From positions 128,001 through 192,000 of IMG/VR virus record IMGVR_UViG_3300037067_004891: a stretch of 64,000 bases of DNA. One strand, 5' to 3'. The notes under the pieces were generated by a model. It was not told where the DNA came from and ran no database searches. It worked only from the letters and a program-made list of their open reading frames with translations. The position numbers were made by a program, and so were the translations under genes. The DNA comes from a virus (taxonomy: Duplodnaviria > Caudoviricetes). Position 1 is the stretch's first letter. Each line of letters begins with the position of its first letter. Below are positions 23,997-64,000 of this stretch, one piece after another.

Positions 23997-26131
23997 TATA
24001 TTGCGCTTAATTTTTGAAAATACATTTTAATTTCATTAGTGAAATTATTAATAATATTAGTATTGATTTTATTCTTTGTTACATAGTTACCACTTATTGT
24101 TTTAGGAATACCAAAAACAGGAAACATATCTACAGATATAATATTCAATTTATTTTTGTATAAATTATCATTCATTATAGCTTTTGATATGATATCTGAT
24201 GTTGTTGCTTCTTGTTGTTTATTAGTTAATGTAGGCACAAATACTTCATCTTTACCATTTACTTTCAACATGTTAAAAACATGAATTTCATTCGAAGTAA
24301 ATAATGTTGTTACTGGAAATTTTAATTTATTTTTGAAAATAAAATATGATGTATAATCAGGAACATTTTTTATACTACTTGTTTCACCAGATTCCATATT
24401 AAATGTTGTACCAATTAAAAATTGAATCAAATTAATATCTTTGGTGTTTTTTAATTTATTATTCGACACATCATAATTATCCATAAAATCTTTACTATAT
24501 GTATCAATTATACATAATGCATCAAATCCAGCTATATTCATATATTTGACGGCAACCATAGATTCGTACTCAGTTATACGTTTACTTCTTAATGCCCATT
24601 TTAAATTTAACATATACAACTCATTAATACCTTTACCTCTAAGATATTCAGCCGTAACTTGGGTTTCAGAAAGTCCCAATCTTTTTACTCTTTCTGCTAC
24701 ACCATTAGCAGTAGCTAATCCAGTGTGTGTTGCTTCAATACTTTTTTTACTTTCTTCTGATGTAGTATCTTTTTGTTCTTTATTCAAAGCAAAATCTTGT
24801 GAAAATGGATTGGCTTTATTTATATTAACTAAATCATTAAATCTTGACAATGCTTTATAAACATCCTTTTTCCAAGTGTTTTCAAGTGTTTTATCAATCG
24901 TACCATCACTCTTTATATACTGTCTTTCAGCTAATAAATGATAAGCGTATAACTTACTTAAATTTATTTTCTGAGTAGCAGATTCTTTGTTTATTTTATT
25001 CTTTTGTTGAAGAGTTAATTCTTCAATTTGTTTATTAATATTTTTAGTACCACCCATTAGAGCTTCATTTATCATTTCATCTTCCAAATAATATACAGAT
25101 TCACCAGTCGAATTATTATCTGTCGAAATTATTTTATTTTTAATATTTTTTGAAGCTGGTATAATTTTACCATCTTCAACTGTGTCAAAATCTCCATCAC
25201 CTTTGGTTTGAATATCCTCTGAACCTTTTATTTTTTGTGTATCTTGTTTCTGTATTGGTTGTAATGTTTCTAAATCAACTTGTTTACCATTTATAAATAA
25301 TTCGCCACTACCAGTTAACTTTCCACCCAATTTACTTATTTTTTCTCTTAATTTAATATATTTGAATTTCATTAATAATAAATCCGATTGATCATATATA
25401 ATACTCAATTTTGTTGATTTTAATTTATTCTTTTTAATTTCTAAATCATTCAATATTTTTTTATCGGTAGGTTTTGTCAATTCTAATTTTTTTATTTCCT
25501 CTGTTTGATTATTATATGCGGTTATTTTACTATTTATAGTGTTCGATTTGTGTCCTATATTATCACTCTTTAATACATCTTGAAATATATCATCTTTTAT
25601 TAAATCAGTTATTGTTGTTGGTTCATTTATATGACTTAATATTTCATCACCTCTTTTATCAACATCTATATTACCCTTTGTACCATCATTATTTTCAACA
25701 GATATTTTTTTTAATTCTAATTTTTTGTCACCATAAGTAAACACAAAACGATCTGTGGATTTATTTGCATCATTAGTATTATTTTCAATATCAGATGTTG
25801 TATCTGTTGTTTCAGTTGGATTCGTTTCAGTTGGATTCGTTTCAGTTGGATTCGTTTCAGTTGGACTCGTTTCAGTTGGACTCGTTTCAGTTGACCCACT
25901 CATTTTAGTTGTTCCAGATAAATATTCTTCAACACCTTCCAATACAACACTCTTAATGTTTCTAATAGAATGTAAAAAAACACCATTTGCAAATCCGTTA
26001 CTAAATAATTTTAAAATACCACCAACAGCTTTTCCCAATAAACTTTCGCTCCATGTTGTATCATTAGTGAACTCTTTGGCTTCTTTTATTTGTATAAAAT
26101 CTTTGAAACTTGTTAAATTTTTAAATTCCAT
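23996..26131 (-). CDS. Large putative virion/internal protein
   Basis: 711 aa, LTSFKDF..E motif, internal MINE, TET(S/N)P repeat. Confidence 0.55.
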   Translation of the reverse strand: MEFKNLTSFKDFIQIKEAKEFTNDTTWSESLLGKAVGGILKLFSNGFANGVFLHSIRNIKSVVLEGVEEYLSGTTKMSGSTETSPTETSPTETNPTETNPTETNPTETTDTTSDIENNTNDANKSTDRFVFTYGDKKLELKKISVENNDGTKGNIDVDKRGDEILSHINEPTTITDLIKDDIFQDVLKSDNIGHKSNTINSKITAYNNQTEEIKKLELTKPTDKKILNDLEIKKNKLKSTKLSIIYDQSDLLLMKFKYIKLREKISKLGGKLTGSGELFINGKQVDLETLQPIQKQDTQKIKGSEDIQTKGDGDFDTVEDGKIIPASKNIKNKIISTDNNSTGESVYYLEDEMINEALMGGTKNINKQIEELTLQQKNKINKESATQKINLSKLYAYHLLAERQYIKSDGTIDKTLENTWKKDVYKALSRFNDLVNINKANPFSQDFALNKEQKDTTSEESKKSIEATHTGLATANGVAERVKRLGLSETQVTAEYLRGKGINELYMLNLKWALRSKRITEYESMVAVKYMNIAGFDALCIIDTYSKDFMDNYDVSNNKLKNTKDINLIQFLIGTTFNMESGETSSIKNVPDYTSYFIFKNKLKFPVTTLFTSNEIHVFNMLKVNGKDEVFVPTLTNKQQEATTSDIISKAIMNDNLYKNKLNIISVDMFPVFGIPKTISGNYVTKNKINTNIINNFTNEIKMYFQKLSAI
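25809..25893. repeat. 15-bp coding tandem repeat, about 5.7 copies (TETSP/TETNP)
   Basis: GTTTCAGTTGGATTC x3, GTTTCAGTTGGACTC x2, plus a partial copy. Confidence 0.95.
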
Positions 26132-34349: not shown

Positions 34350-34626
34350 CTTTCAAAGCCCTTGATGCTTTACTATAATAAAGACTTTGGAAACTGTAAA
34401 TATAACCAGCATCACAACAAGCCACATATCTATTAGCTTCTTCTTCAGAAATATCGGATACTTTACACATTTGGATTAGGTTCATTGGTTTCTCATATTT
34501 ACACAACCAACTATCAGCATAATCCAACGTATTAAATCCTTTTATTTTATATGGTCTATTAAAAAAAACCTTTTCTTCAATATGAAGAAACCTACAAACT
34601 ATTCTATTAATAACTCTACGTATCAT
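34312..34626 (-). CDS. Hypothetical protein; its start codon lies in the degenerate terminal repeat of array 2
   Basis: Minus strand GGTGAGGTGAATATAACAAAAT-ATG. Confidence 0.55.
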   Translation of the reverse strand: MIRRVINRIVCRFLHIEEKVFFNRPYKIKGFNTLDYADSWLCKYEKPMNLIQMCKVSDISEEEANRYVACCDAGYIYSFQSLYYSKASRALKDAIRKKYCVVYI

Positions 34627-34845
34627 ATTTTGTTATATTCACCTCACCGATCTTATTGAATTTATCTTCCTATATACAGTTGTGTCAACCCTCATTTTTG
34701 TGTGTTCACTCACTCAATTGTTAATGCCCCACCACTTGCAGCATGTTGTGTCAACCCTCATTTTTGTGTGTTCACTCACCTATTTACAACTCTTAAATCA
34801 TATTTTTCTGTTGTGTCAACCCTCATTTTTGTGTGTTCACTCACC
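34623..34845 (-). CRISPR. CRISPR-like mini-array 2: 3 full 36-nt repeats, 1 degenerate repeat, 3 spacers (29, 30, 30 nt)
   Basis: GTTGTGTCAACCCTCATTTTTGTGTGTTCACTCACC at 34810-34845, 34745-34780 and 34679-34714 (last base T); degenerate copy ends at 34648. Confidence 0.88.
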
Positions 34846-35111
34846 ATACCCTTAATTAATTCATTAATAGTTAGATCATTAAGATGATATTTCGTTTCTA
34901 AAACTTGATAAATTTTATAATAATTATAAAATAAAACATATGTTTTCTTATCGTAACTAAAATAAACAACGTCATTTTTCTTTCCAACTAAAATATCAGA
35001 ATTATACTTAGAAGCAAACCACTCAGTATCTTTAATTATTTGCCATAAAAAATACTTAGGACTTCTCGCTTCTTGTATCTTTCGAATTACATCTAATATA
35101 TCTTCTTCCAT
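34776..35111 (-). CDS. Array-fused small protein, copy B (start revised to MEEDILDV)
   Basis: Paralog of 52598..52984; C-terminus MVSEHTKMRVDTT is encoded by the first repeat; TAACTTTG box at 35172-35179. Confidence 0.75.
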   Translation of the reverse strand: MEEDILDVIRKIQEARSPKYFLWQIIKDTEWFASKYNSDILVGKKNDVVYFSYDKKTYVLFYNYYKIYQVLETKYHLNDLTINELIKGMVSEHTKMRVDTTEKYDLRVVNR

Positions 35112-38012: not shown

Positions 38013-38131
38013 TAAATCAATAAAAATGTTTTTATTTTTTAGAGAATTATTTATGTTCATTATAAAAAAGATTTTGGTATATATCCTTAATTTGGTATAT
38101 TCACTTACCATACATTTACCAGAATAACACA

Positions 38132-50030: not shown

Positions 50031-50579
50031 TTAAAATATTAAATAATCGGTTTTTATATTTTTATTCTCAATGTTTGTTAAAGTTTTATTTATTTTCTTC
50101 ATAACTTGTGAATCAAATCTTTTTATAAATAATGTTCCGAATATGTGATCGTATTCGTGTTGTATAATTCTTGCTATAACACCTTCATATTCAACACATT
50201 TACTTTCAAATTTGTCATTTAGATATTCTATTTTTATCTTATCAGATCGAGAAACATTCTCTAATAAAGATGGAAAACTTAAACAACTTTCAATAGCGAT
50301 GTTTTTAGTATCACTTCTTTCTGTTATAACTGGATTTATAAAAACTTCTTTAAACCCAAAAAACGAATTTTCTTCTAATCCTTCTGTTGTATCAACAATA
50401 AATAATTTTATTGGGAATCCAACTTGGTGTGCAGCAAGTCCTACACCTTTTGATGCATGTAGAGTTTCAAACATATTTTGGATTAAATCTTGTATTTCAT
50501 TTTTTTCTTGTTCTAAATTTATAAGTCTTGGTTGCTGAATTAAAACATTTTCACCATAGGTGTATATTGGTAATATCAT
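50031..50579 (-). CDS. def: Peptide deformylase
   Basis: GVGLAAHQ, ESCLS, QHEYDH. Confidence 0.95.
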   Translation of the reverse strand: MILPIYTYGENVLIQQPRLINLEQEKNEIQDLIQNMFETLHASKGVGLAAHQVGFPIKLFIVDTTEGLEENSFFGFKEVFINPVITERSDTKNIAIESCLSFPSLLENVSRSDKIKIEYLNDKFESKCVEYEGVIARIIQHEYDHIFGTLFIKRFDSQVMKKINKTLTNIENKNIKTDYLIF

Positions 50580-52020: not shown

Positions 52021-52596
52021 ATGAAACCACTCGATTACATTAAAAAATATAACCTTGATAAAGGTGTAAACTTCAGTCATAATGAATTCATTTCAGACTT
52101 GACAATGGATTTTATTACACTTTTAGAAGTGGGTAATGCACGAGGTAATATTAAAGGTTATAATAACGCTGTCAATGCTATTCGAATGAAATGGGATGGC
52201 ATAGATAAAAAAACGGCTGGTCAATTACCTGAAAAACTCTGGAAATATTTTTTCGCTTCTGTGATAGCTAAATTGCGTGAAGAATTATTTCCAGAAGAAA
52301 TGAAAAGGCAACGACAAGAAAAAGAGGATTGGAAAAGAAGAAAAGAAGAATGGGAGCGCATGGAAAGAGAACACGATTCTTGGATATTTGGTTTCTTTTT
52401 ACATTCTTTATTTTCTAAACAAAAACCAGTTTCCAGTTTCCAAGTCCTCGGACTAACATCTGACGCAACGCTGGAAGACGTGAAAACAGAATATCGTAAA
52501 TTATCAATGATTCACCATCCTGACAAAGGTGGTAACAGAGATAAATTCATTGAGCTAACTGAGGCTAAAAACAAATGTTTGGCATTTTTATCATAA
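52021..52596 (+). CDS. C-terminal J-domain protein
   Basis: FQVLGL...VKTEYRKLSMIHHPDKGG...F.EL.EA. Confidence 0.88.
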   Translation: MKPLDYIKKYNLDKGVNFSHNEFISDLTMDFITLLEVGNARGNIKGYNNAVNAIRMKWDGIDKKTAGQLPEKLWKYFFASVIAKLREELFPEEMKRQRQEKEDWKRRKEEWERMEREHDSWIFGFFLHSLFSKQKPVSSFQVLGLTSDATLEDVKTEYRKLSMIHHPDKGGNRDKFIELTEAKNKCLAFLS

Positions 52597-52597
52597 A

Positions 52598-52984
52598 ATG
52601 GAAGAAGACATATTAGATATAATAAAAAAGATACAAGAAGCTCGTAATCCCAAATATTTTTTATGGCAAATAATTAAAGATACTGAGTGGTTTACTGCTA
52701 AGTATAATTCTAATATTTTAGTTGGAAAGAAAAATGATGTTGTTTATTTTAATTACGATAAGAAAAATCACACTTTATATTATGATTACAACAAAATATA
52801 CACAGTTTTAGAAACGAAATATCATCTTAACAGATTGAATGCTAATGAAATAATTGGTGGTATGGTGAGTGAACACACAAAAATGAGGGTTGACACAACC
52901 AAGGTGCAGGAGTACAGATATATAAGAATGGTGAGTGAACACACAAAAATGAGGGTTGACACAACTCATTTATATCAATTTTAA
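52598..52984 (+). CDS. Array-fused small protein, copy A
   Basis: 88 codons precede repeat 1; reads through repeat 1, spacer 1 and repeat 2 and stops in spacer 2. Confidence 0.75.
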   Translation: MEEDILDIIKKIQEARNPKYFLWQIIKDTEWFTAKYNSNILVGKKNDVVYFNYDKKNHTLYYDYNKIYTVLETKYHLNRLNANEIIGGMVSEHTKMRVDTTKVQEYRYIRMVSEHTKMRVDTTHLYQF

Positions 52985-53351
52985 TATCTTCCTTAGGTGA
53001 GTGAACACACAAAAATGAGGGTTGACACAACTATTCGCATTGCAATCGCCTTCTTCATGTTCGGTGAGTGAACACACAAAAATGAGGGTTGACACAACCA
53101 AGTATAAACCCGTTGTGCTTCATCATTAGGTGAGTGAACACACAAAAATGAGGGTTGACACAACTGGTGTATTGCGTTTCTCTATTATGTGGGCAGGTGA
53201 GTGAATATACAAAAATGAGGGTTGACACAACATTAGAGAGTTTATAAATGCGAAAAAAGGGGGTGAGTGAATATACAAAAATGAGGGTTGACACAACTGT
53301 TCTATGGTGGTTCAACAGACAACACATTGGTGAGTGAACACACAAAATGAG
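52864..53351 (+). CRISPR. CRISPR-like array 1: 7 full 36-nt repeats, 1 truncated repeat, 7 unique spacers (30,30,31,30,31,30,31 nt)
   Basis: GGTGAGTGAACACACAAAAATGAGGGTTGACACAAC at 52864, 52930, 52996, 53063, 53129; variant GAATATAC at 53196 and 53262; 5' part only at 53329. Confidence 0.95.
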
Positions 53352-55368: not shown

Positions 55369-57520
55369 ATTTAACTTTTATTGTTCGTTTAAATGAACCA
55401 GAAAGTTTTAAAATTACACACTCAGAAACAGTAGCATTAAATCCAACACCTGATAATTGTTTTTCAGTAGGTTCAATCATGGTAGTGTTACCTAATACTT
55501 CAAGAACCTTACGATGTTTAGCCAGTTCAGGTATCAAGTTTTCATTATGAAAACTACGAATATTCACAGGGCATTTACAACCGTCAAGCATGATCAAATA
55601 ATGTTTATTACCTACATTATTATCACCCCAATGATTAGGACTTAGACACACCAAATTAACTTTATGAAATTCATTTGTTTGTAAACCATAAAGTTCTTTA
55701 GATGATGCAATTTCAGGTAGTAAATGCATAATGCTAAATTCCCCATTATTCAAAGTAACTTCAGCTACTTGTACATTGCCTGATACGGGTTTATTATATT
55801 CATAAGAATAATTTTCGCCCCCGAATTCAATTTCAGCTTTGAATCCTTTAGAACCCCTGCTGGCATATTGGTTAATCCACAATTTGTAAACACCATCTTT
55901 CATTCTTTTGATATCAGTCCAAGCGATATTCTCAACAATATTTTTATTACTAAAATTATTAGGTTGAGTTATATCAATATCCAACTGTCCAGACATAGAA
56001 GTTCTATGATTTCCTCTGTCTTTTCTGTAATCAGACGAATAATAAATATGAGTACCATTTGGTTCTTGTGCATGAGCATCTAAATCGGAATTATCTGTTG
56101 GGTCATTTTCTGCCCACATAATAGAGAAACGCAATACACCATCAACCTTACCACCTTTAGCTTCAACAGCATCTTTAATCATCGATTTACCAGCCAAGTT
56201 ACCATTGAATGTCCAACTGTAATTGTTATTCCATTTGAATATAGGTTTGCTTTCTTTATTGTTAGCTGTTGTTAAAGAAACAAGATTACCTTCATATTTG
56301 TTAGACAAATACGCTTCAACTGAAGTACACGAAGGAAGAACATCCGACATAAACTTTTCAATAGTTACTTCTTCCACATTATCAAATTCACTTCCTTTGT
56401 GACGAGTAGAAGTCGATTTAACATTGTCGAATATAGAAACAGTTTTTAATTTACCGTCTCCAACATTGATGTGTTTAATTTCCGAAACTTTAATATCATC
56501 AATTGTGGCAAATCTTCTATTAAAAGATTCTTCATAACCATTTTCTTCAACGAATTTTTTAGCTTCTTCAATTTGTTTCTTGGTAATCGGAGCAACAGTT
56601 TTCATATAATTAACTGGGTCAACTCTTTTATTCCAAGACTGACATGCTTTGTTTAAATCTTCCCCCTCTGCCAATTCGGTGCATAAAGTACCAATTAATT
56701 CATTTTTGAACTTAGCAAATGGAAGTTTATAACTGTTAACCCAACACCAATTATCCCTTTTATCCTCGGATAATTTATCATATTGTTCCTTTAATGGTAT
56801 GATTTGATGTAATTTATACAAATGAGTTTGTCCATCCAGCAGTGAACCTTGGTTAATAAGGTCTTTCACCAGATTGAGTGTATCAAGCGGTATCACTTGC
56901 ATAGCCTTTTGAAAAACATTTTTGGCATCTCGATAATTAGCCATTATTTTTTCAACTGAATCATCACCCATATCTACAAATACCCTTGGTAGATTAAGAT
57001 GTAAATGATTAAATGTTCTAATTTCTTCAGGTTTAACTATGAAAGAATCATCTGAATTTTTATACAATTCAGCTTCATCTTTTGTGTATTGCTTTACGTT
57101 TTTGTCAATACCCAATCTGAAAATTTCATTTGTTTTAGAACATTTCTCATAAGGTAAAGAATTTAGCTCGCTGAAAGTTTCAAAGAAAACACCCGAAACC
57201 GTAGCCGATTTTAGTTTAGAATCTACCACTTTAGCTACTGCACTGTATTCTTCATTTGCATCAACATCAAACATCGTAACAACATTGAGATTTTCATCAA
57301 TGGCAACGATATTACCATATCTACGAATAAAGTTATTACAGTGATTACAGTTATGTGAAGAACTGTCTGGACTTCTGAATATGGGATTGTGTTCTTTTGG
57401 AAAACTTTTAATATACAAATCCCACACTTCTTGACCAGTCAACGAACTACGAAATAACTTACCCGTTTCACACATCTTGTTGAATTGGGCTTGAATTAGT
57501 TTGTTAAACTCAATCATCAC
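55355..57520 (-). CDS. Large hypothetical protein (721 aa) carrying the protospacer of spacer 5
   Basis: HNCNHC, LRFSIMW...DLDAH..EP, LDID, VENIAW, SPNHW. Confidence 0.8.
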   Translation of the reverse strand: MMIEFNKLIQAQFNKMCETGKLFRSSLTGQEVWDLYIKSFPKEHNPIFRSPDSSSHNCNHCNNFIRRYGNIVAIDENLNVVTMFDVDANEEYSAVAKVVDSKLKSATVSGVFFETFSELNSLPYEKCSKTNEIFRLGIDKNVKQYTKDEAELYKNSDDSFIVKPEEIRTFNHLHLNLPRVFVDMGDDSVEKIMANYRDAKNVFQKAMQVIPLDTLNLVKDLINQGSLLDGQTHLYKLHQIIPLKEQYDKLSEDKRDNWCWVNSYKLPFAKFKNELIGTLCTELAEGEDLNKACQSWNKRVDPVNYMKTVAPITKKQIEEAKKFVEENGYEESFNRRFATIDDIKVSEIKHINVGDGKLKTVSIFDNVKSTSTRHKGSEFDNVEEVTIEKFMSDVLPSCTSVEAYLSNKYEGNLVSLTTANNKESKPIFKWNNNYSWTFNGNLAGKSMIKDAVEAKGGKVDGVLRFSIMWAENDPTDNSDLDAHAQEPNGTHIYYSSDYRKDRGNHRTSMSGQLDIDITQPNNFSNKNIVENIAWTDIKRMKDGVYKLWINQYASRGSKGFKAEIEFGGENYSYEYNKPVSGNVQVAEVTLNNGEFSIMHLLPEIASSKELYGLQTNEFHKVNLVCLSPNHWGDNNVGNKHYLIMLDGCKCPVNIRSFHNENLIPELAKHRKVLEVLGNTTMIEPTEKQLSGVGFNATVSECVILKLSGSFKRTIKVKFGNG
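56111..56141 (-). other. Protospacer identical to array-1 spacer 5
   Basis: Plus strand TGCCCACATAATAGAGAAACGCAATACACCA is the exact reverse complement of 53165-53195. Confidence 0.97.
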
Positions 57521-59535: not shown

Positions 59536-59601
59536 CATTTTATATACACATGATTTTTTTATTAAAAAAATATTATTTATTTTTATAACAAATTATTTTA
59601 T

Positions 59602-60105
59602 ATGTTAGACATAAAAATATACAAACAAAAAACTCATTACACTTGTGGTTGTGCCACACTTCAAATGGTATTGGAATATTTCAATATGTCAGTTCCTTCA
59701 GAAGAAGAAAAGATTTCTTTATTGGGAACTAAACCAGAAGAAGGTACAGCATATGAATCTTTAGTAAATGGTGCTAAAAGTTTAGGTTTACAATGTCAAT
59801 TCGGTGAAAATGGAGATTTCGATAAATTAAATGAATATATAGAAGATGGATGGCTTCCTATTATCGCTTATAGTCTGGATGCCCCTCATTATTCAGTTTT
59901 TCTTGGGCATAATGGAAACCACATCAGATTGGCTGACCCCTTCTCAGGTCAAAACCAACATTATCTTATAAAAAAATTTATAAGAAATCAATGGAAAGTA
60001 GATGAGAAAGATTATAAACAGATAATTCAAGAATTTGGGTTATCTTTCAGTTATAATATAAACACTGTTAAATGGTGGGCTATTTTTAAAAAAATGAACA
60101 AGTGA
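59602..60105 (+). CDS. C39-family cysteine peptidase-like protein
   Basis: Q...TCGCATLQMVL.YF, GT...L, HYSV, LADP. Confidence 0.82.
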   Translation: MLDIKIYKQKTHYTCGCATLQMVLEYFNMSVPSEEEKISLLGTKPEEGTAYESLVNGAKSLGLQCQFGENGDFDKLNEYIEDGWLPIIAYSLDAPHYSVFLGHNGNHIRLADPFSGQNQHYLIKKFIRNQWKVDEKDYKQIIQEFGLSFSYNINTVKWWAIFKKMNK

Positions 60106-60597: not shown

Positions 60598-62006
60598 CCA
60601 ACTGCTAACAAAAATATAATAAAATCTACAAATATTTAATAAAATTAAAACAAAACGTTTTAATTTTAATATAAATTTAATGTTAAAAGCGATAAAAATA
60701 AGGTTGTACCCTAATAAAAATCAAGAAGTTTATATTAATAAACTTCTTGGTTGTTACCGCTTTATGTATAATAAATGCTTAGAGTTAAAGAAAAATAAAT
60801 ATACTGAAGAAAATATTTCTTTAGGTTTAAAAGATTTAGGAAAACATTTTCATCAAAATTTAACTAAAAATAATGATTATATTTTTCTTAAAGAACACAA
60901 TACCAAGGTTTTAAAACAAGCAATTATTAATCTTTTAGATTCTTACAAAAACTTTTTCATAAATGGAACTGGTTTTCCTAAATTTAAATCAAAGAAAGAC
61001 AACAAACATTCTTGTAGGTTTCCAGCAGAAAGTGTAAGTAAAAAGAATAATTATTTATCTGGGAAATTAACTTTAACCAGTCAAATTAAAGATATAAAAT
61101 TCAAATGTTCAGATAATTATAAAAATTATTTAGATAAATATAAAAATAATATTCGGTCAGCTACTCTTACTAAAACTGCTTCTGGAAATTATTTTTTAAG
61201 CGTTTTAGTTGATGGAAATATTGAAAAACAACTACCCAAACCTATAAATGAAATTGTTGGGATAGATTTGGGAATAAAGGACTTCGTGATTAGCTCCGAA
61301 GGAGCTGTTTACGAAAACCTTAAAACCCAAAGAGCCAACGAGAAGCAGCTCATTAAATTGCAAAAACAACTGTCTAAAAAAGTTATAGGAAGTAGAAACA
61401 GAAACAAAGCAAGAAAAAAATTAGCTAAAAAATATGATAAAATAAATAACAAGAAAGAAAAATATTTACATTTTGTTGCAAACCAATTACTTAATGATAA
61501 TCAAATTATAGTGTTGGAAGATTTAAATGTAAAAGGTATGTTGAAAAATCACTGTCTATCAAAATCAATACAAGAACTGTCACTAAACAGGTTTAAAAAT
61601 ATTTTAAGTTATAAATCTGCCTGGTATGATAGAAATTTAATTGAAGTTGATCGGTGGTTTCCTTCATCAAAGCTCTGTAACTGTTGTGGTTATAAAAAGA
61701 AAGACTTGAAATTAAATGATAGAGTGTGGGTCTGTCCCAACTGTGGGGTCGTTCACGACCGTGATTTTAACGCTGCTATAAATATAAGAGAAGAAGGGAA
61801 AAGAATTTTTAACAGTAAAATAACTGACTTTCAATCAAAAAAAGATTTTCAAGTAGGCAACCGTTTTGCCGAATTTACGCTTGTGGACTCCCCAACTATG
61901 GATGACCCAATCAGAAATGGTTTGCTAAAAAGTAGTGAGAGTGTGAAACAAGAAGAAATATTTTTAACAAATTTGTAATTTTTGTTAGATTTTTTTGAAC
62001 GGTTAA
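60598..62006 (+). mobile_element. TnpB-only IS200/IS605-type element (1409 bp)
   Basis: Boundaries defined by the restored host frame; GGTTAA at both junctions (60592-60597 and 62001-62006). Confidence 0.85.
60680..61978 (+). CDS. tnpB: RNA-guided endonuclease TnpB, intact
   Basis: KAIKIRLYP, GIDLGIK, LEDLNVKGM, FPSSKLCNCC...CPNC...DRDFNAAINI. Confidence 0.95.
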   Translation: MLKAIKIRLYPNKNQEVYINKLLGCYRFMYNKCLELKKNKYTEENISLGLKDLGKHFHQNLTKNNDYIFLKEHNTKVLKQAIINLLDSYKNFFINGTGFPKFKSKKDNKHSCRFPAESVSKKNNYLSGKLTLTSQIKDIKFKCSDNYKNYLDKYKNNIRSATLTKTASGNYFLSVLVDGNIEKQLPKPINEIVGIDLGIKDFVISSEGAVYENLKTQRANEKQLIKLQKQLSKKVIGSRNRNKARKKLAKKYDKINNKKEKYLHFVANQLLNDNQIIVLEDLNVKGMLKNHCLSKSIQELSLNRFKNILSYKSAWYDRNLIEVDRWFPSSKLCNCCGYKKKDLKLNDRVWVCPNCGVVHDRDFNAAINIREEGKRIFNSKITDFQSKKDFQVGNRFAEFTLVDSPTMDDPIRNGLLKSSESVKQEEIFLTNL

Positions 62007-62599
62007 ATCTATTAATTTCAATAATGAAAAACATTCTCAATTGATAAAACAATCTGTATCCAAAAAAGGATACCTAAGAGTTAGAATCAATAAAAATAAT
62101 AATAGATACACTCTGAATGTTCATCGGATGGTAGCTACTGCATTTATACCTAATTCTGATAATAAGCCTCAGATCAATCATTCTGATGGGAACAAGAAGA
62201 ACAACTACTTCACCAATCTCGAATGGTCAACCAATCAGGAAAACCAAGATCATGCAAGAGGAATGGGATTGATACAACCACCACCAAGAGGATATGATAA
62301 CACTTGTTCATTGGAAGTATTACAGTATGATAAATATACATTGGATTTAATTAAAAGATGGGGCAGTATTGGAGAAGCATCAAGAGATTTAAAAATACCG
62401 ACTACAAATATATCAAAATCGAGTAGTCGCAAACGAATGATAGCTGGTGGTTTTATTTGGAGATATTCAGATGATGAAATAAAATTTCCAAAATGCCCAT
62501 ATTGCAATAAAGAAAATAAAAATTTAAATTATTCTAATACTCAACATAGAAAAGTAATATGTTCAAATTGTGGTTATAATTTTTTGTTAATTTTATAAT

Positions 62600-62744
62600 A
62601 TGGATGATACTTTTGATATAATAAAAAAGATACAGGAAGCCAGAAGCCCGAAATATTTTTTATGGCAAATAATTAAAGATATTGAGTGGGTTGATTCTAA
62701 GTATATTTCTAAATATTTATACAAAAAATGAGGGTTGACACAAC
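62600..62744 (+). pseudogene. Third, internally deleted copy of the small-protein/repeat cassette
   Basis: MDDTFDIIKKIQEARSPKYFLWQIIKDIEW... (stop at 62731) joined to the 3' part of the repeat, ACAAAAAATGAGGGTTGACACAAC (62721-62744). Confidence 0.85.
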
Positions 62745-63009: not shown

Positions 63010-64000
63010 ATGATAGTAACATCATCAATGAAAATAAAAATAATACCAGTGGATGTAATATCCAAAAAGTGGATATTTGATATTTTTAATGTATCTTATA
63101 AGATTCAGAATCGGGCTTATGATATATCACGGATGTTACATCAATATCCAGTAATAATGTTACCTGTTACACCACCCAAATCACAAGTATATAATTTAAC
63201 TACTCAGGAATTTCCTAAAGTTATTACTACTTATCTGAGAGATTGGGTATATCAAGCAGAAAACAATTATAAAAGTGATGTTAAAGCTGGTTTATTATCA
63301 GGTAAAAGAAGTCCAAGACTGTATAAGAAATATGGTGCTACACGTTTTCAATTTTTGAAAAAATCTAATCCAAAATTAATAAAAGAAAATGGTGATTTTT
63401 TTATTCTTATTAACAGTAGAACAAATATCAAATTTAAAATACTATTCGACAAAAAAACAGGACATCTTAAAACTATGTTAAATAGATTTTTGGATTTAGA
63501 AAATAAAAAATACAATCTTAACTCAACTTTTTATATTAAAAAAACCAATAGAAACGAACTGATGTTAATCATATCCTATGAACAAGACATCCAAGGTTAT
63601 GTTGGCATAAATAATAGAGTGATGGGTATTGATATGGGTGTGAGAAGATTTATTTCTTTAAGAATAAATGACATACCAAGATATCAGAAGTCTATTCATA
63701 GTGAGAAATTAGTTCAACAGAAGTATGGTATTGCTATGAAAAATAAAAGGGTACAGGAATCTTCTGTATTAGCTAAATCAGGTCATGGTAGAACAAGAAA
63801 AATGCAGGTTTATAATAAAGTAAAAGATTCTGAAACATCATTTACTAATAATGTACTGGATAAATTATCAAAAGAAGTAATTGAATCTGCTGCAAAACGA
63901 AAAGTTCAACAGATAAACATGGAACGTCTTGATAAGAATTCTATGAAAGAACAAAATTCTTATCTTGGAAGATATTGGAGTGTTATGACTTTGATGAATC
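63010..64000 (+). CDS. Cas12f-like (type V-F / TnpB-derived) RuvC effector, runs off the window end (not in ORF track)
   Basis: Open for 330 codons: GLLSGKRSPRLYK, LIISYE, RuvC-I VMGIDMGV (D208), SGHGRTRK, LSKEVIESA, RuvC-II INMERL (E305), YLGRYWS. Confidence 0.8.
   Translation, partial: MIVTSSMKIKIIPVDVISKKWIFDIFNVSYKIQNRAYDISRMLHQYPVIMLPVTPPKSQVYNLTTQEFPKVITTYLRDWVYQAENNYKSDVKAGLLSGKRSPRLYKKYGATRFQFLKKSNPKLIKENGDFFILINSRTNIKFKILFDKKTGHLKTMLNRFLDLENKKYNLNSTFYIKKTNRNELMLIISYEQDIQGYVGINNRVMGIDMGVRRFISLRINDIPRYQKSIHSEKLVQQKYGIAMKNKRVQESSVLAKSGHGRTRKMQVYNKVKDSETSFTNNVLDKLSKEVIESAAKRKVQQINMERLDKNSMKEQNSYLGRYWSVMTLMN

Follow-up and report, generated by a model that had tools for sequence, protein, structure and literature searches.

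CRISPR leaders are regarded as non-coding. The occurrence of Cas9 and orphan arrays in huge phages is already known (PMC7162821), and short virus-borne arrays have also been described in Bacteroidota-infecting landfill megaphages, which share their habitat with the phage analyzed here (PMC12607003). We examined a 64-kb stretch of DNA, hereafter the window, which comprises bases 128001-192000 of one 421,673-bp IMG/VR virus contig. Each array of 36-nt repeats in this contig follows a small-protein gene whose 3′ end doubles as the first repeat, an arrangement that is well supported for every array of the genome and for all relatives examined. We refer to the gene and its array together as a cassette.

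Among described systems, type II-C arrays are similar in having 36-nt unstructured repeats, spacers of about 30 nt, a 3′ PAM, a degenerate terminal repeat and growth at one end, and the cassette repeat matches the Cas9-array repeat of a related phage at 21/36 positions. Unlike type II-C arrays, the cassettes have a translated gene as leader, with repeat 1 coding for part of its predicted fold. They also lack adjacent cas9, cas1 and cas2 genes and any cognate tracrRNA that we could find, and they occur as 7-13 dispersed arrays per genome, some spacers of which target the phage itself perfectly. Virus-borne mini-CRISPR and orphan arrays are likewise short, lie away from cas genes and have at least one spacer matching a related phage (PMC7162821; PMC12607003), and the landfill megaphages represent the same phage lineage and habitat (PMC12607003). 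Those reports describe the mini-arrays as non-coding, however, and mention no gene 3′ end that serves as first repeat (PMC7162821; PMC12607003), and for the cassette repeat we found no matching host repeat in the genomes scanned.

The omega-RNAs of TnpB and IscB provide a precedent for guide-scaffold sequence that doubles as a coding 3′ end. The overlapped gene in that case is the RuvC nuclease that uses the RNA, whereas the cassette protein has about 100 aa, is not a nuclease, adopts a different predicted fold and has no Pfam, PHROG or NCBIfam match; cassette guides would also be arrayed spacers acquired next to a PAM, not transposon flanks. RNA anti-CRISPRs and solitary phage repeat units resemble the cassettes in that a phage encodes CRISPR repeats but no cas genes, perhaps with a small protein on the same transcript. 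Unlike them, the cassette arrays appear to gain spacers, their repeats are coding, and no host repeat that they would mimic was found.

Cassettes in the phage genome and its relatives

The contig belongs to a megaphage with 25.7% GC and is 59% complete according to CheckV. ORF statistics are normal with table 11, so the standard genetic code fits and an alternative code was dropped. DNA of this phage is present in landfill and groundwater metagenomes; a megablast search against a phage collection gave no match.

We found seven intact cassettes and one truncated cassette in the contig. The gene of cassette D (52598..52984, + strand) encodes 128 aa as read: codons 1-88 precede the array and codons 89-101 are repeat 1, after which the frame crosses spacer 1 and repeat 2 and stops partway into spacer 2. 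Array D (52864..53351, +) consists of seven 36-nt repeats (GGTGAGTGAACACACAAAAATGAGGGTTGACACAAC; copies at 52864-53297 with a period of 66-67 nt) separated by 30-31 nt of spacer, and terminates in a degenerate repeat from 53329; repeats 6-7 are of the GAATATAC variant. The ATG of cassette D lies 1 base past the stop codon of a DnaJ-domain protein gene directly upstream (52021-52596, +), and a peptide-deformylase-like gene, assigned by motifs only, is found further upstream (50031-50579, -). The gene of cassette C (34776..35111, -) encodes 111 aa and runs through repeat 1 and spacer 1 to a TGA stop at the start of repeat 2, within array C (34613..34845, -). Array C contains three repeats and three spacers, two of them full, and terminates in a degenerate repeat. 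In both cassettes, repeat 1 begins after codon 88 of paralogous ORFs (starting at 35111, -, and 52598, +); it is read in frame as (M)VSEHTKMRVDTT, and the repeat translation in the two arrays is MVSEHTKMRVDTT. The truncated cassette (62600..62744, +) fuses the first ~42 codons of a paralogue to the last 21-24 nt of a repeat and has no further repeat.

Every array of this genome is preceded by the small-protein ORF at the same codon. Arrays of 2-10 repeats follow six of the seven intact ORF copies and a single degenerate repeat follows one, and the repeat abuts the same codon in 7/7; the array-less intact copy lies at genome position 23267. The seven copies share 63-88% protein identity and contain no stop codons, and one has an in-frame 4-codon insertion. 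At 26% GC, chance cannot account for seven gene/repeat junctions that share one codon position. One solitary degenerate repeat (38073..38109, -), which reads CMVSEYTKLRIYTK, has no small-protein gene before it and trails an unrelated 85-aa ORF just downstream of a DNA ligase gene; it is absent at the syntenic site of a complete relative. Two further features were observed in passing. A 15-nt tandem repeat (GTTTCAGTTGGATTC, ~7 copies) at 25794-25908 of the window is probably within a gene, and a GC-rich, tRNA-like structured segment (L015, genome ~59560-59720) is located downstream of array B on the opposite strand, converging on it.

The complete relative (G001; 639,979 bp with terminal repeats) carries 11 intact and two decayed cassette copies. 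Ten of the 11 intact copies precede 1-5 repeats, the array-less copy at position 69721 is itself intact, and every cassette-type array found in the relative follows the ORF in frame. Several of its cassettes are syntenic with cassettes here and have different spacers. Two neighbouring cassette spacers at 4381-4476 of the relative are identical, which indicates that a repeat-spacer unit was duplicated. In further IMG/VR and JGI metagenome contigs with this repeat, the ORF was upstream and in frame in all cases, and zero spacers were shared with this genome.

More distant homologues have the same organization. All 16 close homologues in a 90%-identity database continue into the same motif, beyond which their tails vary. 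An exhaustive profile-free search of phage metagenomes yielded 50 homologue clusters at 50% identity, with identities to the query down to about 25-30%; the alignments mostly reach into the repeat-encoded motif, which several proteins contain two or three times. The four homologue contigs that were read as DNA (L002, L003, L085 and L086) all have 36-nt repeats with a 66-nt period starting at the motif, L085 with two tandem cassettes. The in-frame order of gene and array extends to distant homologues of 30-50% identity, and even at about 30% identity the codon of the gene/array junction is unchanged. Most family members have short arrays, and DNA contigs from sequencing runs break at the repeats. 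L003 (6001-8283), from an unrelated 148-kb phage contig, has five head-to-tail gene-plus-mini-array cassettes in one 760-codon frame. All eight of its spacers are open in frame (p about 0.01), which may be an ascertainment effect.

The original prediction, made from the two arrays in the window, was that the 36-nt repeat starts after codon 88 of paralogous ORFs and that gene and array behave as one repeated cassette. Both arrays bear this out, the same codon is used contig-wide, and the unit recurs in 7+1 copies here and 11+2 in the complete relative. The anticipated association of homologues with arrays at the same motif was found in every homologue contig read as DNA. The prediction also knew of no CRISPR locus with such an architecture, and we likewise found no paper on a coding leader or a coding first repeat of a CRISPR array.

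A conserved protein gene at the leader position

Pairwise dN/dS across the 88-codon part of the seven copies is 0.16-0.41, with substitutions among the paralogues concentrated at third codon positions. The 12 repeat-encoded codons have a pN/pS of 0.38 when read in the ORF frame, compared with 1.34 and 1.09 in the other two frames. These substitution patterns indicate that both the 88-codon part and the repeat-encoded codons are under purifying selection. In several copies, only a few bases separate the ORF start from the stop codon of the preceding gene, which places these copies inside operons.

AlphaFold2, given a 57-sequence alignment, predicted the structure with high confidence (pLDDT 95.2, pTM 0.82). 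The predicted topology is two helices, a four-stranded sheet and two helices, the last of which (residues 79-94) extends into the repeat-encoded residues. In this model, part of the fold (the last helix and strand) is encoded by repeat 1, which places a single 36-nt sequence under coding and repeat constraints at once. Searches of Pfam, PHROGs and NCBIfam gave no family match for the small protein, a Foldseek search of the PDB gave no match to a solved structure (E > 0.4), and the best unrelated match in a wide structure search with VIA reached a Z of only 4.2. Known Acrs showed no match in sequence or fold (AcrF10, Z 3.2), and only viral hypothetical clusters, none of the named ones, were matched in the ESM atlas.

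That the gene is a real protein gene of ~100 aa, present across many phages, is well supported. Gene and array are linked strictly and have been so since ancient times, which argues for a protein role tied to the array. The array-less copies noted above (genome position 23267; 69721 in the relative) have stayed intact, so the protein may not need the array; together with the near-neutral pI of the family, they argue for a protein function of its own.

These results agree with the original prediction, which had argued for a real protein from synonymous Ala-Arg codons (GCT CGT, GCG AGA and GCC AGA, all of them present); the dN/dS values, the third-position excess and the confident model now add to them. 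Its proposal that spacers rewrite the C-terminal tail also held, in that the tail after the repeat is spacer-encoded and differs in every copy. We considered whether the spacers are translated for a purpose, as RiPP-like or diversified tails, and rejected this; stops in the ORF frame are not depleted (36/47 spacers vs 34 and 29 in the other frames), and the 65-67 nt spacing breaks the frame. We also observed that the repeat start GGTGAGTGA (52864-52872, and every repeat start) puts a TGA in both non-ORF frames, so that an out-of-frame ribosome would halt immediately after a 28-, 29- or 31-nt spacer; after a 30-nt spacer, it would read through the repeat. This feature is missing in distant homologues.

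The predicted leader position of the ORF was corroborated by array polarity. In every array that has a degenerate or older-type repeat, this repeat is ORF-distal. In array H and contig L074, Ile-type repeats are gene-proximal and the older Ser-type repeats distal, and the Ile-type change is also present in the coding repeat of both. Variants of the coding repeat thus appear to have been copied into the proximal repeats while distal ones keep the older form, which points to growth at the gene end. We consider array growth at the gene/repeat junction to be well supported by these repeat comparisons.

Spacers, protospacers and CRISPR type

The arrays have much in common with canonical CRISPR arrays: near-identical direct repeats of 36 nt, within the 23-55 nt range; unique spacers of similar length (28-32 nt, with 28 of the 47 measured being 30 nt); growth from one end, the distal repeats being degenerate or of an older type; and a conserved protospacer-adjacent motif, 3′ NAAAA. 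In place of a non-coding leader, they have a gene under selection whose frame includes repeat 1.

Spacers C1, D5 and G1 perfectly match the phage's own genes, and some of these self-matching spacers are gene-proximal, at the newest end of the array. The C1 protospacer is at genome position 256664-256692, outside the window, and the D5 protospacer is at 56111..56141 (-) inside a 721-aa gene, with the 3′ flank GAAAAT. For spacer D2 the match, with 2 mismatches, is to a gene of the relative, and three first spacers of the relative match its own genome with 0, 1 and 3 mismatches. The motif 3′ NAAAA flanks 4/6 good protospacers against a background of 2.7% (p about 8e-6), and the uptake of spacers next to a PAM is well supported by these flanks. 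Spacers have 35.5% GC, compared with 23.8% in PAM-flanked 30-mers of the phage (p 1e-8), which suggests that they derive mostly from foreign DNA; their GC resembles that of the spacers in the relative's Cas9 array. No protospacer was found for four foreign spacers in IMG/VR or JGI metagenomes.

The cassette repeat is unstructured (fold z-scores -0.5 to 0.85) and has no match in Rfam. Read in the ORF direction, it agrees at 21/36 positions with the crRNA-oriented repeat of the Cas9 array in the relative, compared with ~16/36, counted by eye, in the opposite orientation. This difference suggests that the ORF direction is the guide direction, in which case the PAM lies 3′ of the protospacer, a type II arrangement. 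An unstructured repeat related to known type II repeats is characteristic of that type, and a sampled Bacteroidota 36-nt II-C repeat has a central TTCAAAT core in common with the cassette repeat. Repeat and PAM features therefore class the arrays as type II-like.

The relative encodes a Cas9 of 1130 aa (Pfam RuvC_III and HNH_4; TIGR01865 at 297 bits). Its locus (L033:4683-8960, corresponding to G001 284560-288937) has a canonical 11-repeat array upstream of cas9 and, directly downstream, a tracrRNA candidate with a terminator after it; this candidate pairs with the repeat of its own array at -30 kcal/mol. The repeat of this array differs from the cassette repeat, and none of its spacers match the relative's own genome. 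Cas9 was not found in the 59%-complete fragment studied here, and cas1 and cas2 had no Pfam match in either the 422-kb fragment or the complete 640-kb relative. The locus syntenic to the relative's cas9 (genome 421090-421673, beyond the window at the contig end) is occupied instead by an ORF for a small membrane protein and by the first part of a gene for a P-loop ATPase, which suggests a variable defence-type hotspot.

A scan of intergenic DNA found no anti-repeat to the cassette repeat in either phage, and the same scan ranked the Cas9 tracrRNA top; pairing between that tracrRNA and the cassette repeat is poor (-13 kcal/mol). Ungapped tracrRNA scans were unreliable. The solitary repeat at 38073-38109 was rejected as a tracrRNA candidate because the relative lacks it. 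When 185,579 bacterial species genomes were scanned with two degenerate patterns, only single chance matches and no array with the repeat were returned. We also rejected RNA targeting of type VI-B, whose Cas13b repeats the cassette repeat resembles: seven self matches are sense and two antisense to ORF-direction transcripts, which is the wrong way and not significant.

Possible roles of the cassettes

The reading that we favour, with confidence and doubt about evenly balanced, is that each cassette is a type II-like CRISPR mini-array with a protein-coding gene as its leader. New units form at the gene end by copying of the coding repeat and insertion of about 30 nt. This step would be catalyzed by Cas1-Cas2 supplied in trans, most likely from a Bacteroidota host, and the integrase would recognize the gene's final codons as the junction of leader and repeat. 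Transcription of the gene, often within phage operons, would yield a hybrid mRNA/pre-crRNA. The guides would be used by an effector of the Cas9 class, which some relatives encode themselves and the host would provide in other cases, in conflicts with other mobile elements including related phages. The protein would work together with the array that it precedes, for instance by acting on the effector or on the repeat as RNA or DNA. The lack of cas1/cas2 and a cognate tracrRNA in both phages, and of Cas9 in the fragment, weighs against this explanation, as do the intact array-less copies and the failure to find the repeat as an array in the bacterial genomes scanned. So do the perfect, PAM-flanked self-targets, which would be expected to be lethal under active interference; presumably they are tolerated through some protection, or there is no active effector.

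If a conserved translated gene serves as leader, a single 36-nt sequence must suit a protein fold, an integrase and a guide-RNA scaffold together. This raises the questions of how leaders are recognized, how orphan phage arrays gain spacers without cas1/cas2, how perfect self-targets are tolerated, and what role is played by a widespread small phage protein without structural match. The cassettes may reveal a new CRISPR accessory protein or an anti-CRISPR. A bolder proposal, which we put forward only tentatively as the less likely case, is that gene and array form a self-contained unit, in which the protein, carried on the same transcript as the guides, recognizes its own repeat and replaces a tracrRNA- or Cas-accessory step such as guide loading, processing or integrase recruitment. 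Such a unit would represent a previously unknown class of CRISPR accessory, with a CRISPR repeat and a protein fold co-evolved in one sequence.

The absence from the phage of cas1, cas2 and a cognate tracrRNA could also be read as a sign that the arrays work against CRISPR. The repeats could mimic a host type II repeat and soak up Cas9, tracrRNA or Cas1-Cas2, as a sink for adaptation on a genome that replicates to many copies, with a co-transcribed Acr-like protein neutralizing the self-targeting guides. The many dispersed copies, the short arrays of most family members and the tolerated, PAM-flanked, self-derived spacers at the newest positions are consistent with such a decoy, and a small protein without structural or family match is typical of Acrs. 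We nevertheless consider it improbable. The genome scans gave no matching host repeat, the spacers are mostly foreign with GC like that of the true Cas9 array, and the repeat-encoded part of the fold is left unexplained; conservation this wide, or 7-13 copies, is rare for Acr genes, and the near-neutral pI of the family also counts against this role. Alternatively, the arrays could be passive. Ectopic integration at repeat-like sites occurs, and the 3′ end of a multi-copy gene for a protein with a CRISPR-unrelated function could be a good substrate for host integration, where functionless neo-arrays form and decay. Purifying selection that persists in array-less copies, tiny arrays in most homologues and newest spacers from the phage, whose DNA is the most abundant in the infected cell, would all fit such hitch-hiking. 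What makes it unlikely in our judgement is the constancy of the junction, which stays at the same codon to about 30% identity with repeats in every homologue read as DNA, together with repeats that remain near a type II-C-like consensus across the divergence of the homologues and arrays that here reach 7-10 repeats with mostly foreign spacers.

The neighbourhood of the truncated cassette points to a different candidate effector, a miniature nuclease of the TnpB/Cas12 type encoded by the phage. A divergent TnpB-family gene lies 270 nt downstream of this cassette (63010-63999, +; 5′ part of a 423-aa protein; NCBIfam guided_TnpB, 116 bits), the contig has 7-9 TnpB-family loci, and the protospacer flank read on the opposite strand would be a 5′ TTTTN PAM. 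We regard service of the arrays to such a nuclease, for example the 423-aa protein, as very improbable. Read in reverse, the arrays have a polarity that does not suit type V, a hairpin at the 3′ end of the repeat is missing, and no homologue of the 423-aa protein was found in the complete relative, which has retained 11 cassettes. The remaining TnpB genes are ordinary IS605-type copies; the one within the window (60680-61978) is typical of these, with an HTH domain, and an HNH endonuclease gene (62041-62598) separates it from the divergent gene. The 423-aa TnpB-family gene is thus probably unrelated to the arrays.
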